This document shows, one piece after another, positions 19,368-64,000 of a DNA stretch of 64,000 bases. The position numbers and the translations under genes were made by a program. The DNA is from an uncultured Anaerolineales bacterium (GTDB lineage Bacteria > Planctomycetota > Phycisphaerae > FEN-1346). The first letter of the stretch is position 1. Each line of letters begins with the position of its first letter. Under the pieces are notes generated by a model, which was not told the DNA's origin, ran no database searches, and saw only the letters and a list, made by a program, of their open reading frames with translations. The stretch spans positions 76,453 through 140,452 of the forward strand of contig CAYWVR010000002.1 in assembly GCA_964461715.1 (NCBI GenBank), read 5' to 3'.

Positions 19368-20381
19368 CTACTTGCTGCGACGACGACGGACGTAGCCCGC
19401 CAGGCTGCCGAGGCCGAACACCAGACCGGCCATCGTGACCGGCTCGGGCACAAAGGCGCCCATCGCCGGGTCCGAAGACTCGACCAGCCAGGGATCGCCG
19501 GACGGCGCGAAGTTCGGCCGCGTCGTTCCCGCGAGGCGCATGTCGGCCGTCACACCCGTCACCGACGAGAAGCTGTTCGGGAACGGATCCTGGTCGAACT
19601 GGGCGAGCTGCGTCCCACCCGTCCAGGAAATGAACAGGTCGAACGTGCCGGAGCCCGTGCCGTTCTGCGGCACGAACGTGGCGAACACGTCGTCCAGCAG
19701 GAAGCCGCTCTGCGTCGTGCCGACGAGGACCTGCTCGGCGCCGGCCGCGATGGTGTCCGTCCCCGTGCCATCGTAGCCGATGCCGGGGTACTCATTGGCG
19801 TCGACGCGGGCGCCGGGGCCGCCCAGACCCGTGGACCACGGATCCTCGTTGGTCACCGGGACGAACCACGGCGCCTCGGAGGCGCCGAGGGGCTGCACGA
19901 ACATCTCGAACGTGTCGCCCGCGCTGAACAGCGTCTGCTGAATCACCGTGCCGGTCGGACCGGTCACCGATTCGAAGATGACCGTGTTGTCCTGGCGGCC
20001 ATAGAAGATGCCGACGATCTCAAGGCCGGCGTCCCCGTGACCGTAGAGCTGCTTGCTGCCCTGGGTGATGCCGTCGGGGGCGTTGTGCATTCCGGAGAAG
20101 ATCGTGTCGATGCGGAACACGCCCCAGGCGTCCTCATTGGCACCCAGGCTGGCATGCTTGTTCTTCTGGAGCTGGTCGGGCGTGTACGCCTGGCCCAGTG
20201 TGACGGGGGTCACGCCGTCCGCCTCAAGACCGGTGTACTCCGTGCCCTGATCGAAGTTGATCAAGTGCATGACGTACGGTCCGGTGTAGCCCGTGCGGAA
20301 CGGAATCGTGGCCGCCGACGCGGGGCCGGCGAGGGCGAACACCATGCCGCCCAAGATTAGAAGTATGCTCAAACGTCTCAT
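19368..20381 (-). CDS. PEP-CTERM-anchored secreted protein (exosortase substrate)
   Basis: Signal peptide MRRLSILLILGGMVFALAGPASAAT. The extreme C-terminus FVPEPVTMAGLVFGLGSLAGYVRRRRSK is the PEP motif plus TM helix plus Arg cluster. The body is Gly/Thr/Asp-rich. An AAGGAGA SD lies upstream of the chosen ATG. Confidence 0.8.
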   Translation of the reverse strand: MRRLSILLILGGMVFALAGPASAATIPFRTGYTGPYVMHLINFDQGTEYTGLEADGVTPVTLGQAYTPDQLQKNKHASLGANEDAWGVFRIDTIFSGMHNAPDGITQGSKQLYGHGDAGLEIVGIFYGRQDNTVIFESVTGPTGTVIQQTLFSAGDTFEMFVQPLGASEAPWFVPVTNEDPWSTGLGGPGARVDANEYPGIGYDGTGTDTIAAGAEQVLVGTTQSGFLLDDVFATFVPQNGTGSGTFDLFISWTGGTQLAQFDQDPFPNSFSSVTGVTADMRLAGTTRPNFAPSGDPWLVESSDPAMGAFVPEPVTMAGLVFGLGSLAGYVRRRRSK

Positions 20382-20587
20382 GATCTGGTTCTCCTTCGGT
20401 TTTCCTCCGTCGTACGTGCGGAGGAAATGTCCCCTCGAAACGTCGTTACAAGGCCTTGTGTTCTCGACTCGCCTCCGTCGGTGCCGGGCGGCATGGCGCC
20501 GTGCGCCCGACAGGTGAACGTCCGGTGCTTGGTTTATGCCCCCCACCTCCTTTCCCAAGGGGCGGCTATGCCCGCCTCTCTGGCTCT

Positions 20588-62500: not shown

Positions 62501-64000
62501 TTGGCGGGCGATCCGCGCATCACCCTGGCCGTCGGCCGCGCCTACGCCGCCCTCGGAGAAAACGAACGGGCCGCCGAAGTCCTGACGCGCGTGCCGACCT
62601 ACGTGCCGCAGCACCTGCCCGCCCAACAGGTCCTGGCCCAGGTCCAGCCGACCGCCGAAGCCAAGGCGGCGGTGCTGGCCGAGCTGGCCGAAGACCATTC
62701 TGCCAACCCGACCGTGGTCGACCAGTGGATGGCAGCGCTCGTCGAGGCCGGCCGCCCGCAGGAGGCCCTGAAAGCGTACCGCGATTTCTTCGCCGACCGA
62801 CCCGTCGCCCGTGTACCCCCCGGCCTGTCGGTGCAGGCCATTCGCATCCACCTGGGGGCGGACGACCGGGCCGGGGCGGCGGACCTCTGCGCGCAGCTCT
62901 CGCAAGCAACCGAGAACCGGGCGCCGCTTTGGCGCTTCCTGGCCGCCATCCTCGCCCCGGCGGATCAGGCCGACGCGGCGCTGGCCCGTCTCCCGGAGGA
63001 CGACACCATGACCCCGCGCGACGTCTTTGCGGCCCTGGCCCTGGCGCCGCATCCGGCGCCGTCGGCCGCCGGGTGGCACACCCGGCTGCAGGCGTTCGTG
63101 ACGCGCCTGGCCGACGCCGACCCGCCGCAGGAGTTGCCCCTCGCGTACCTCTTCCTGGCGCATCTGGCGGCTGGCGACGTCGCCGCCGCCCAGGCCACCC
63201 TCGAGGGCTTCGCGCCGGAGGGGTTCATCGGGCGGGAAGCCGTGGTGGAGATGGTGGACGCCGCCGAGAACGATCCGAAGGCAGCGGCGGCGGAAGCCGC
63301 GGAGCTGCTCCGGGCCACGCTGGCCGGCGAGCTGGGCCTGCCGGAGTTCGGCCGGGAGGTGGCCCTGGAGGTCCTGAGGGCCCGCCCGACCTGCCAGTGG
63401 GCGGGCGGACTGGCGGCCCCTGCGCCCGGCGGCGACCCGGAAGGCCTCCGCCGCGTCCTCGAGATCATTCAGCCGTCCGACGGACTGGTGGCCCTGATGG
63501 TCCGGGCCTCGCTCCACATGAGCGAGCGGGAACTCGACGAGGCCGCCGAGGTCCTGAAGCAGGCCGCCGAGATCGAACACGACGTCCCCGCCCTGGTCGC
63601 GCTGCGCGCCATCGTCCTGGAAAAGGCCGGCCGCCTGACCGAGGCCCTGCCCCTGCACGTGCGCTTGTGGGAGGCGACGAAGAACCCCGCCTCGGCCAAC
63701 AACGCCGCCTACCTCGTCAGCCGCCTCCACAGCGACGATCCCTTAATGCTGGCCAAGGCCCGGGAGTGGGCCGAGGCCGCCGTCAAGGCCACGCCGCAAG
63801 CCGCAGCCTTCCGCGATACCCTCGGATGGATCGCCCATCTCCAGGGCCACCGCGAGACGGCCCGCCACGAGCTCCGGCAGGCGGTGCGCCGGATGCCCGG
63901 CTCCGTCGAGGTCCACTATCACCTCGGGATGGCCGAGGCGGCGGCGGGATTCGAGCAGTTCGCCCGGTGGCACCTGGCCCGCGCCGACGACATCGCACGC
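59546..64000 (+). CDS. very large TPR-repeat protein (PrsT-like PEP-CTERM-system TPR protein), 5' partial in window (>1480 aa, runs off the end)
   Basis: ATG overlaps the exosortase stop (ATGA). N-terminal TM or signal sequence MIRRIVLILFIAGLVTGAAVGLWVF. The frame stays open to position 64000. Sampled translations are Ala/Leu/Arg/Glu-rich helical TPR-type repeats (…LEHARRCYDLRPDTPSSLRLIVQAAIGN…; …HYHLGMAEAAAGFEQFARWHLARADD…). Confidence 0.75.
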   Translation, partial: MIRRIVLILFIAGLVTGAAVGLWVFLRPDSPAKMIARADVALRAKNYDRAIELARAYRELEPDNWRSYYVEGRSQLRLKRIEEARAVLKEGLARHPDSQPLTIALADSHIQPAERILASGAAGADADAIETAIENLREAIRTLAEFEADDPKGELDVRQSLALRTLGLGQAQRLLAARRRQDAAVAAGAGAEAERVEHSRRAEEADRRAEETLDRAARLLLAVACEDPGREPVVDPLIRLARERNDDDAIGQLSQAMEDTENAPPLARTLVVMYALSKIETPSEAEYARTAEALDGILQNHPDATEALLARAEVALGLADYDTLEACVRKALDGEGVAVEDQGRARMIRARGLVRQRKWAEAEQVLYALKMDFPRWAEPFYLYALTTHKTGKKELAREAMRTIIATIDKDHLDAHRFLAETFLEEERYEQALEHARRCYDLRPDTPSSLRLIVQAAIGNKQPELARDLLDEAMKREPPDPGILVEVSRGYARLGRNEQARTAAEKAAEVEAGSETAIQVARARMLLGEAEEAERILEAETDRRPDSIELQTALGEFYVRTGRTARATEHYRRAAELAPDSAPVHLALARALLNTGLVEEAEAETRHVLNLDPGNADAALLLSQIRAVRGEISIEQMVQQFLDEGRPGLPLAMTHLKRGAPEKCINICLAELEQTPDNADARALLALAYQAMGEHQKCKEQLREAVRRAPDQFLAYLRLAAVLARTMAPETVEIELGAVPGARRDLVDLALGWLLGRIGQPRGAAEAYGRLASRPDAPEESRNRARLLRARALVAAGHPDRALIELDQLATDDDWRRIAQIQKVTLLASLEHVDEADQILGALVDEALETRRTSFLQQAVQLYARMGRTARALTLCTRLEALDPKDPTPHLLRAAVLVSDGRGGKAVESYHKAIELHPSNFSTHILLARTLDAEDRPSDALQALDRLADMGQTGHALAAIERGRMMAGWGLPARAIEAFTVLENSPLAGDPRITLAVGRAYAALGENERAAEVLTRVPTYVPQHLPAQQVLAQVQPTAEAKAAVLAELAEDHSANPTVVDQWMAALVEAGRPQEALKAYRDFFADRPVARVPPGLSVQAIRIHLGADDRAGAADLCAQLSQATENRAPLWRFLAAILAPADQADAALARLPEDDTMTPRDVFAALALAPHPAPSAAGWHTRLQAFVTRLADADPPQELPLAYLFLAHLAAGDVAAAQATLEGFAPEGFIGREAVVEMVDAAENDPKAAAAEAAELLRATLAGELGLPEFGREVALEVLRARPTCQWAGGLAAPAPGGDPEGLRRVLEIIQPSDGLVALMVRASLHMSERELDEAAEVLKQAAEIEHDVPALVALRAIVLEKAGRLTEALPLHVRLWEATKNPASANNAAYLVSRLHSDDPLMLAKAREWAEAAVKATPQAAAFRDTLGWIAHLQGHRETARHELRQAVRRMPGSVEVHYHLGMAEAAAGFEQFARWHLARADDIAR

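Follow-up and report, generated by a model that had tools for sequence, protein, structure and literature searches.

A Conserved Non-canonical tRNA-like Gene Beside the Fem-type Transferase of a Planctomycetota PEP-CTERM/Exosortase Exopolysaccharide Locus, a Putative Aminoacyl Donor

Results

The locus and its gene calls

The DNA analysed in this work is a stretch of 64 kb (contig CAYWVR010000002.1 of assembly GCA_964461715.1), here called the window, and the block studied comprises its positions 19368-64000. This block is almost certainly a PEP-CTERM/exosortase-linked exopolysaccharide locus with a Wzx/Wzy-type pathway from an uncultured Planctomycetota (Phycisphaerae-like) host, since the models for PEP-CTERM proteins, exosortase, EpsI, FemAB, stp1 and the tyrosine kinase pass their curated cut-offs. 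Within it, at 29676-29752, lies a non-canonical tRNA-like gene between the genes of a FemAB-family transferase and an stp1-type glycosyltransferase. It is from this embedded gene that the newness of the locus comes, the other parts being ordinary; as a parts list the locus is a well-populated example of an already known system, and proteins of its relatives are already annotated automatically as 'FemAB family XrtA/PEP-CTERM system-associated protein' and 'EpsI family protein'.

Genes were called from third-position G+C and codon-position asymmetry, and the calls were cross-checked against gene calls on Logan contigs L001 and L137, which represent independent assemblies of this organism. Families were assigned by scans with NCBIfam and Pfam profiles against curated cut-offs or gathering scores. 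Four genes occupy the minus strand at 19368-23036 and about 28 genes follow at 24091-64000, all on the plus strand except one at 54389-55510, with the exosortase gene embedded among exopolysaccharide genes. The G+C content is about 70% in the window and, because it is uniform across the borders of the block, the locus was not marked as a compositional island. An earlier reading of this DNA, made without database searches (the sequence-only reading), had proposed the same identity from the letters and their translations, and the profiles bear it out: exosortase, EpsI, PEP-CTERM, FemAB and stp1 models all scored above their cut-offs, and the C-terminal motifs, which that reading had singled out for checking together with the exosortase and EpsI profiles, consist of PEP followed by a hydrophobic helix and an Arg/Lys cluster.

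A tRNA-like gene between the FemAB and stp1 genes

The Rfam scan of the window returned a single match, a tRNA at 29676-29749 (RF00005, 55.7 bits against a gathering score of 29), which ARAGORN called as tRNA-Val(UAC). The gene (29676-29752, plus strand), with A73 and CCA encoded, lies in the gap of 135 nucleotides that separates the FemAB stop codon at 29645 from the stp1 ATG at 29781 on the same strand. In the window copy the anticodon loop is AAUACAC, with an A at position 33 where the consensus is U33, and in the Rfam alignment an extra nucleotide is bulged from the 5' strand of the T-stem. U33 and an anticodon loop of 7 nucleotides are needed for normal decoding, and the T-stem is the contact surface for EF-Tu. 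A35, C36 and A73 are the main identity nucleotides for valyl-tRNA synthetase (ValRS), while GAU and A73 belong to the identity set of isoleucyl-tRNA synthetase (IleRS).

The longest stp1 open reading frame (TTG at 29691, 445 residues) overlaps the tRNA-like gene and was used in a public automated call (L137, 11096-12433). The true stp1 start is the ATG at 29781, with which the start of the TIGR03087 match at residue 34 of this long frame agrees. The sequence-only reading missed the tRNA-like gene, which is covered by the over-extended frame. A second ARAGORN call at 37452-37544 (93 nucleotides, 'tRNA-???', two-base anticodon ct, inside the Wzx gene) received no Rfam support and is probably a false positive. 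A tRNA-Ala isotype was also set aside: it gave the best similarity to an E. coli tRNA, 80% over the core only, which is uninformative, and the G3-C70 pair excludes alanine identity. A search of a plasmid collection with the tRNA-like gene returned unannotated tRNA-like matches only.

Conservation of the element

Orthologues of FemAB were aligned and the downstream sequence was inspected in 79 metagenomic loci. ARAGORN found a tRNA 20-50 nucleotides after the FemAB stop in 23 loci, most of them flagged as abnormal, with 'anticodon atac'. A covariance model of the family, built from 26 distinct sequences, gave together with inspection 40 matches of 82-108 bits including the window copy, and one more copy is cut by a contig end. 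Ordinary tRNAs reached 46-49 bits on the family model (813 kb of other loci), and the Rfam tRNA model RF00005 scored 47-55 bits in 13 relatives. Of the 48 loci that have downstream sequence and a FemAB of 54% identity or more, 39 carry the element. None of the 15 loci with a FemAB identity of 47% or less does, and in these FemAB runs straight into stp1. In a neighbour-joining tree of FemAB the element-bearing genes form one clade, with basal members that lack the element and a few internal losses.

The position is retained down to 58% FemAB amino-acid identity, with 19-68 nucleotides between the FemAB stop and the element in most loci and, on its other side, a median distance of 28 nucleotides to the stp1 start. 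The mean column identity of the element is 89%, while its flanking spacers are unalignable. The metagenome-assembled genome (MAG) GCA_030612725.1 has the FemAB, tRNA-like and stp1 genes in the same arrangement, on one contig and one strand with the fused exosortase, from which about 20 kb separate them. Around the exosortase of 54 related loci only three tRNAs were found, all ordinary and none of this family, so that the element tracks FemAB and not the exosortase.

The 26 distinct sequences fold as a cloverleaf with a one-nucleotide bulge in the T-stem, in which pairing holds in 99.3% of cells and compensatory changes are seen at seven pairs. This level of pairing was reached by none of 500 shuffles, and slid controls paired at 44-58%. 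The acceptor stem (A1-U72, G2-C71, G3-C70, C4-G69, G5-C68, G6-C67, G7-C66) has six invariant pairs, and 5-68 varies in two of the 26 sequences. The T-stem bulge lies between pairs 51-63 and 52-62 in all 26, shifted by one position in two of them, and A73 is invariant in 26 of 26. Only about half of the copies encode CCA. Taken together, the tRNA-like gene is very probably a functional RNA.

Departures from the consensus concentrate in the anticodon loop. Among 32 distinct sequences the loop has 8 nucleotides in 25, 7 in six and 47 in one, this variation being confined to the 5' side while the 3' side is kept (UACAC in most), and the anticodon is preceded by A in 26, by G in four and by U in two. 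With positions numbered from the 3' side, 27 sequences have the anticodon UAC, three AAC, one CAC and one GAU. A35 is thus invariant and C36 occurs in 31 of the 32 (25 of the 26 aligned), the exception being an Ile-type lineage, while position 34 is free. Because A35, C36, A73 and the acceptor stem are kept and U33, the loop and the T-stem are not, the pattern looks like selection for a synthetase and for a reader of the acceptor stem, with ribosomal use relaxed or counter-selected.

Two variants deserve description. The copy at 4065-4181 of L083 carries on the 5' side of the anticodon loop an insertion of 39 nucleotides that could form a hairpin, and its 3' side, AAAUACAC, is intact. In L085 and L100 (4074-4150) the anticodon stem is altered by three compensatory pairs and the loop, CGGAUAA, gives an Ile-type GAU, again without U33.

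The Fem-type transferase

The gene that precedes the element (28596-29645, plus strand) encodes a FemAB-family transferase with the Fem-type tandem GNAT fold (protein I; TIGR03019, 325 bits, cut-off 260), and the gene that follows it (29781-31028, plus strand) an stp1-type GT4 glycosyltransferase (protein J; TIGR03087, 404 bits, cut-off 317), both as the sequence-only reading had predicted. The family profile of the transferase matches S. aureus FmhB and aminoacyl-tRNA-dependent peptide synthases in the PDB (6snr, 9wqy). Its AlphaFold2 model (pLDDT 92) had as its top 11 PDB folds only Fem-type aminoacyl-tRNA-dependent transferases (E from 4e-15 to 5e-12), including Weissella FemX, Sbb17/Sba18, and S. 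aureus FemX, FmhB and FemA. Sbb17 and Sba18, crystallised with streptothrisamine, are named by their PDB depositors as aminoacyl-tRNA-dependent peptide synthases, and according to a review the related Orf11 transfers glycine from Gly-tRNA to streptothrisamine (PMC12945691). Fem enzymes take their amino acids from aminoacyl-tRNA (PMC2655667). A search of the literature, in an incomplete collection, found no paper linking exosortase systems, FemAB and tRNA or aminoacyl-tRNA.

Exosortase, TPR protein and PEP-CTERM proteins

The exosortase is encoded together with EpsI in one open reading frame (protein AE, 57873-59549, plus strand, 558 residues; PF09721 and PF11984). Its exosortase part scored 120 bits with TIGR02602 (cut-off 105.6) and 50 bits with TIGR04178 (cut-off 23), and its EpsI part 70.5-73.3 bits with TIGR02914 (cut-off 42.8) and 99.9 bits with PF11984. 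In an alignment of 19 homologues N210-x-C212-x-G-L-R216, R257 and H278 are invariant, which fits the Cys/Arg/His set proposed for the exosortase family (PMC1569441). The subtype is less clear. The best full-length hidden Markov model (HMM) match is XrtD TIGR04152, at 218 bits below its cut-off of 400; XrtA TIGR03109 gave 127-129 bits, below 208; and for the catalytic domain alone the two tie (XrtA 129, XrtD 126 bits). At least 351 homologues exist, and the best 120 of them are 51-65% identical, all with PF09721 and PF11984, the named ones being from Phycisphaerae or Planctomycetota MAGs. The fusion proposed by the sequence-only reading is therefore real and not special, since EpsH proteins with a fused EpsI region were already described by Haft et al. 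(2006; PMC1569441) and the best 120 homologues share the architecture.

The start of the next gene overlaps the exosortase stop codon. It encodes a PrsT-like TPR protein (AF, 59546-64000, plus strand) that runs about 96 nucleotides past the window end and has 1516 residues in full, as read from L001, with an N-terminal membrane anchor helix and no lipobox Cys. The PrsT assignment of the sequence-only reading is borne out in part: PrsT TIGR02917 is the best match (236 bits), at a score below the cut-off of 312 and in a protein of 1516 residues. An exosortase followed by a giant TPR gene occurs in 47 of 54 related loci, all of them MAGs and nearly all labelled Planctomycetota or Phycisphaerae. 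Profile scans detected no PrsK/PrsR in the 64-kb window, as had been remarked before, and sigma-54 sites (TGGCAC-N5-TTGCW, up to two mismatches) numbered 8 against 15 expected in the window, with none upstream of the PEP-CTERM genes, so that no PrsR-type regulation is evident in the window. This absence is hardly noteworthy, because PrsK, PrsR and PrsT were defined in Proteobacteria only (PMC1569441) and the host is not a proteobacterium.

Three PEP-CTERM genes lie in tandem on the minus strand, and in the motif scan each product has at its C-terminus VPEP or APEP followed by a hydrophobic helix and a basic Arg/Lys cluster. Protein A (19368-20381, 337 residues, gene call in L137) has a signal peptide and the C-terminus VPEPVTMAGLVFGLGSLAGYVRRRRSK (VPEP...RRRRSK; TIGR02595, 20.5 bits, cut-off 16). 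Protein B (20588-21469; APEP...RRR) matches PF07589 with 20.7 bits, exactly the gathering score, and Peptidase_C39_2 (PF13529) with 39.5 bits. Protein C (21559-22305; VPEP...KRR) scores 16.8 bits with TIGR02595. The three tandem substrates of the sequence-only reading are thus confirmed, and they alone are three in the window where Haft et al. (2006) took more than two such proteins per genome as the PEP-CTERM criterion. Protein B is a putative cysteine peptidase, which would itself be sorted by the exosortase, and its tail beyond the basic cluster is unusually long, about 30 residues.

Next to these genes, a polyprenyl-phosphate sugar-phosphate transferase (D, 22380-23036, minus strand, 218 residues) matches PF02397 and TIGR03025 (258 bits), the latter over the C-terminal catalytic domain only, in agreement with the transferase that had been predicted. 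Its N-terminus, MPEPITLVGVGAGFLGL, reads as a PEP motif followed by a hydrophobic stretch, probably by coincidence. The divergent region between D and E (23037-24090, about 1.05 kb) shows no clear coding signal in third-position G+C and is probably non-coding. A frame of 265 residues called there in another assembly (about 23297-24094) was rejected as a gene, being of low complexity and hinging on the length of a homopolymer C-run: near 23650 the run has 8 nucleotides in the window and 7 in another assembly of the same organism, which alters this spurious call.

Export, assembly and decoration genes

On the plus strand the export genes come first: a Wza-like export protein (E, 24091-24909; Poly_export and SLBB_2, best NCBIfam match TIGR03027), a chain-length determinant of the PCP type (F, 24932-26803; best match TIGR03007, 146 bits, cut-off 279), an ExeA-like AAA ATPase (G, 26814-27671; AAA_22; TIGR03015, 241 bits, cut-off 324) and a tyrosine autokinase (H, 27686-28549; TIGR01007, 121 bits, cut-off 108; TIGR03018, 135 bits). 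The best match of each is an XrtA-system family, and only the generic kinase model exceeds its cut-off. All four correspond to the Wza-like lipoprotein, PCP, ExeA-like ATPase and BY-kinase recognised in the sequence-only reading.

Following stp1, a small membrane protein without a family match (K, 31030-31425, plus strand) holds a position that is taken by a VanZ-like gene in one relative. A split glycosyltransferase pair (L and M, 31430-33552, plus strand) consists of a GT1 fused to a PssD/Alg14-like part and of a PssE/Alg13-like protein; NF041549 was matched, as were NF041548 (120.6 bits, cut-off 120) and Alg14. Next come two PP-loop amide synthetases of the AsnB fold that lack the catalytic Cys at the N-terminus (N and O, 33555-36448, plus strand, N at 33555-35033). 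Only the fold search identified N, which gave no sequence-family match: in its AlphaFold2 model (pLDDT 92) both domains match beta-lactam synthetase 1mbz (Foldseek, E = 9e-14), 1q19 and 1ct9, and beta-lactam synthetase, carbapenam synthetase and AsnB head the list of PDB folds matched. It has an SSGYDS motif, with S209, G211, Y212 and D213 invariant, and an N-terminus (MTMD...) with no Cys at position 2. Its family comprises more than 500 'hypothetical proteins' without a Pfam domain, mostly from Planctomycetota and one from Desulfuromonas, and with a fold that is clearly that of AsnB/beta-lactam synthetase it could receive a domain model. For O the evidence is weak (Asn_synthase, 20.3 bits against a gathering score of 21; asn_synth_AEB, E = 9e-6), and neither N nor O nor the N-family profile gave a match when searched by sequence against the PDB. 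Since BLASTP detected no similarity between N and O, they are not recent paralogues. Of the two Cys-less AsnB-like proteins claimed before, N is upheld by its fold and O stays weakly supported.

The Wzx flippase (P, 36462-38030, plus strand; MOP flippase NF007773, 262 bits) and the Wzy/O-antigen-ligase-like polymerase (V, 44236-45606, plus strand; Wzy_C, 73.7 bits; TIGR03097, 94 bits, below cut-off) are both present, as in the sequence-only reading. Between them, tandem GT4 paralogues (Q and R, 38098-40856, plus strand) share in their 5' halves an exact repeat of 449 nucleotides (38209-38657 and 39597-40045; about 510 nucleotides near-identical), while their 3' halves are about 30-70% identical; this repeat reflects either a recent gene conversion or a collapse or chimera of the metagenome assembly. 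A GT2 (S), a protein without a family match (T) and a further GT4 (U) follow at 40866-44248 on the plus strand.

Beyond Wzy, a PaaK/CapK-like adenylating enzyme (W) and a DUF362 protein (X) at 45603-48496 (plus strand) lead into an accessory block (48415-55510) with a double GT4 (Y, two matched GT4 stretches), an ATP-grasp protein (Z), a NodB-like protein (AA) and a second PaaK-like enzyme (AB) on the plus strand, and a PGA_cap/CapA-like protein on the minus strand (AC; PGA_cap, 200 bits). A GH42-like protein with a hydrophobic, signal-like N-terminus (AD, 55577-57742, plus strand; PF02449, 23.1 bits against 21; GH42M, 21.4 bits, below cut-off) precedes the exosortase gene, and its orthologues occur in L007, L022 and L035. 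The NodB-like match of AA is sub-threshold (17.8 against 23.1). An XrtA-system polysaccharide deacetylase (TIGR03006, 329 bits, cut-off 276; Polysacc_deac_1 and DUF3473) lies directly after the TPR gene, about 100 nucleotides beyond the window end (window-equivalent 64093-65010; L001 7943-8860). The opposite strand then carries PDZ-protease-like, VanZ-domain and PQQ-repeat genes, with which the locus probably reaches its downstream limit.

For this part of the locus the sequence-only reading fared unevenly. The double-GT4 fusion, the ATP-grasp ligase and the CapA/PGA_cap protein are there as described. A secreted GH42-like hydrolase is present with a weak family match, and a deacetylase belongs to the locus as the gene just past the window, the one inside being sub-threshold. 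Three CapK/PaaK-like enzymes had been counted, of which the interval holds two (W and AB), a weak third lying outside at 12685-14139. Nor are the accessory enzymes unusual, for the block of Wzy, double GT4, ATP-grasp, NodB-like, PaaK-like and PGA_cap genes adjoins the exosortase in L005, L020, L026, L028 and L032 at 50-76% identity, and this recurrence makes them a conserved module of the clade. In six more loci it is the PaaK-like gene alone that directly precedes the exosortase. The idea of an amino-acid-decorated or amidated polymer, also put forward in that reading, is plausible, and it is strengthened by the tRNA-like gene that adjoins the Fem-type transferase.

The upstream flank

A cluster of six genes lies upstream of the studied block (11772-19330): an Amidohydro_2 protein (11772-12731), the weak PaaK-like protein (12685-14139), a ThiF/MoeB-like E1 (14163-14999), two FeeM-family N-acyl amino acid synthases (15014-15898, weak; 16474-17394, 125 bits) and an SDR (18347-19330). 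The functional locus may thus extend upstream to about 11.8 kb. Farther upstream, 5239-7449 encodes a protein of 736 residues whose last 150 are a GreA/GreB transcript-cleavage factor; this GreA/GreB-type protein thus carries a long N-terminal extension, and its best matches are the fusion proteins PRK14720 and PRK06330.

Discussion

The finding that we consider central in this work is a tRNA-like gene that is conserved next to a Fem-type transferase. We hypothesize that the RNA is a dedicated aminoacyl donor for this enzyme, a role to which, judging from the sequence features, we give about even chances; on that basis the element would be a putative translation-incompetent donor of valine and rarely of isoleucine. 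The full explanation, a polysaccharide/exosortase locus with a private aminoacyl-donor tRNA, is in our estimate slightly favoured, with a probability of roughly 0.55.

The proposed mechanism is as follows. Transferase D would prime polyprenyl phosphate, as its family membership suggests, and about nine glycosyltransferases (J, L/M, Q, R, S, possibly T, U and Y) would assemble a repeat unit that could be decorated by the AsnB-fold proteins N and O, the PaaK-like W and AB, the ATP-grasp Z, the NodB-like AA and the PGA_cap protein AC. Wzx (P) would flip the unit, Wzy (V) would polymerise it, and the polymer would be exported by the PCP F, the kinase H and the Wza-like E together with the ATPase G. 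Proteins A, B and C would be secreted, held by their PEP-CTERM helix and cleaved at the PEP motif by AE, the exosortase that appears translationally coupled to the TPR protein of 1516 residues. The tRNA-like RNA would be cut out of the operon transcript and charged by ValRS, or by IleRS in one lineage, and the missing U33, the 8-nucleotide loop and the bulged T-stem would keep it off EF-Tu and the ribosome. The Fem-type transferase I could then use the charged RNA as its private donor and place the amino acid onto a sugar intermediate, presumably onto a sugar amine.

An extension of this scheme joins the tRNA and the exosortase. The stp1 glycosyltransferase and the XrtA-type deacetylase would make a sugar amine, to which the adjacent Fem-type transferase would attach the amino acid from the charged tRNA; more speculatively, the free alpha-amino group of that amino acid would serve as nucleophile and receive the PEP-CTERM proteins from the exosortase. 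That a Planctomycetota clade evolved a private, translation-incompetent Val/Ile tRNA whose amino acid, on a sugar amine, is the exosortase acceptor is a tentative idea that we hold to be more doubtful than probable.

Other explanations of the element have to be considered. The locus could be an ordinary exosortase-linked one in which the element is a structured RNA, recognised by RNase P and RNase Z, that cuts or stabilises the mRNA between FemAB and stp1. Such a role would agree with the tight spacing in the operon (19-68 nucleotides upstream, median 28 downstream), which leaves no room for a promoter or terminator of its own, with the encoding of CCA in only about half of the copies and with an anticodon loop that is clearly free of decoding constraint. 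However, mRNA processing has no need for an invariant A35, a nearly kept C36 and A73, and leaves unexplained why the 3' half of the loop, UACAC, is preserved while the 5' half tolerates 1-40 extra nucleotides. The sole anticodon switch, moreover, is not random: it leads to GAU, the identity set of another class-Ia synthetase, and the element adjoins the only aminoacyl-tRNA-using enzyme family in the locus. We regard mRNA processing as an unlikely explanation, though the most serious of those considered here.

That the element is a decoding tRNA, either the normal tRNA-Val(UAC) of the genome or a quadruplet-reading tRNA (+1 frameshift suppressor) for a gene of the locus, could be argued from the ARAGORN calls, which are tRNA-Val for several copies and give four-base 'anticodons' for others, and from the 8-nucleotide anticodon loop, a hallmark of frameshift suppressors. 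Yet the loop has 7, 8 or 47 nucleotides among close relatives, 30 of 32 sequences have A or G at position 33, any of U, A, C and G may stand at position 34, the T-stem is bulged in every copy and the genes of the locus are free of interrupting frameshifts, all of which makes decoding improbable. Still less credible is a decaying relic of a former integration site or of a duplicated tRNA, a pseudogene with no present function. The several departures from the tRNA consensus and the 39-nucleotide loop insertion in L083 would be expected of a relic, but its position would hardly be kept down to 58% FemAB identity, nor its columns at 89% identity between unalignable flanks, with compensatory changes holding the pairing at 99.3% of cells; and the 'defects' are themselves conserved.

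A number of points nevertheless weigh against the aminoacyl-donor explanation. The evidence base consists of metagenome assemblies throughout, most export-gene HMM scores fall below the equivalog cut-offs, and no model of a named Xrt subtype reaches its cut-off with the exosortase. The predicted valine identity is read only from the anticodon and A73, the whole-body similarity to E. coli tRNAs being uninformative for isotype. Nine orthologous loci and all the distant XrtA-type loci lack the element, so that the Fem-type enzyme is not universally dependent on a private tRNA. Finally, only family membership suggests what the acceptor substrate is and which reactions the accessory enzymes catalyse.

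Exosortase systems were predicted in 2006, and the element bears on what an exosortase attaches its substrates to and on why a Fem-type protein is a core component. A tRNA gene beside the Fem-type transferase would be direct genomic evidence for an aminoacyl-tRNA-dependent step, and the element predicts the amino acid, valine or, in one lineage, isoleucine. If the donor role is true, the element represents a natural bacterial tRNA family that gave up decoding and yet keeps the identity nucleotides of its synthetase; if the exosortase indeed used that amino acid, the system would be a Gram-negative counterpart of sortase attachment to the Fem-built cross-bridge of lipid II. For annotation, over-extended stp1 reading frames may hide the tRNA-like RNA, as at least one automated call of this locus does.

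Compared with known systems, the locus most resembles the XrtA systems of Proteobacteria (Haft et al., 2006, PMC1569441; the Methylobacillus eps, Zoogloea and Aquincola floc loci), with which it has in common the PEP-CTERM substrates, an EpsH exosortase, EpsI, a TPR protein, FemAB TIGR03019, stp1 TIGR03087 and deacetylase TIGR03006, the last three above cut-off here, as well as matching ATPase, tyrosine kinase, chain-length and export genes and a setting within a large polysaccharide locus. It differs from them in an exosortase of 129 bits against the 208 of the XrtA cut-off that is always fused to EpsI, in a TPR protein of about 1500 residues against about 900 for PrsT, and in having neither a PrsK/PrsR pair nor a sigma-54 motif in the window. 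The tRNA-like gene between FemAB and stp1 is a further difference, being absent from every sampled FemAB locus of 47% identity or less. With XrtD (TIGR04152), which is specific for VPLPA-CTERM, the locus shares an exosortase and a C-terminal EpsI-like domain in one polypeptide, but the score is 218 against 400 bits and the neighbouring substrates carry VPEP/APEP, not VPLPA.

Genes for N-acyl amino acid synthases have been linked to PEP-CTERM/exosortase loci by Craig, Cherry and Brady (2011), as cited in PMC7293339 and PMC4897644, and the same linkage has been noted in the planctomycete Stieleria maiorica. The FeeM-family genes of the window, 2-4 kb upstream of the first PEP-CTERM gene, match the linkage as reported; unlike in the reported loci, they sit with ThiF-like, PaaK-like and amidohydrolase genes, and they gave no match to the exosortase-associated acyltransferase model.

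Sbb17 and Sba18 (Orf11-type; PDB 9wqw/9wqy) have the Fem-type tandem GNAT fold in common with the transferase of the locus (TM 0.66/0.78, E about 1e-14). According to the review (PMC12945691), their systems transfer an amino acid from aminoacyl-tRNA to the amine of a sugar-containing small molecule, in streptothricin-like natural-product pathways of actinomycetes that use ordinary Gly-tRNA; a term search of that review turned up no tRNA gene in streptothricin-like clusters.

By analogy, the closest precedent for the tRNA-like gene is the tRNAGly of S. aureus, where FmhB prefers 'non-proteogenic' tRNAGly species that are poor ligands of EF-Tu and of the ribosome (PMC7826273). The pairing of a Fem-type transferase (FmhB/FemA/FemB) with a non-consensus tRNA, which splits aminoacyl-tRNA between translation and a surface polymer, would be common to both (PMC7826273). 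Here, in contrast, the system is known from sequence alone, the predicted amino acid is valine or isoleucine, and the acceptor is presumably a polysaccharide intermediate and not lipid II. The tRNA gene also lies inside the biosynthetic operon, beside its presumed enzyme, and its departures from the consensus are harsher, with no U33, an 8-nucleotide loop and a bulge in the T-stem. If the donor role is true, the element would be a more extreme relative of the cell-wall tRNAGly of staphylococci.

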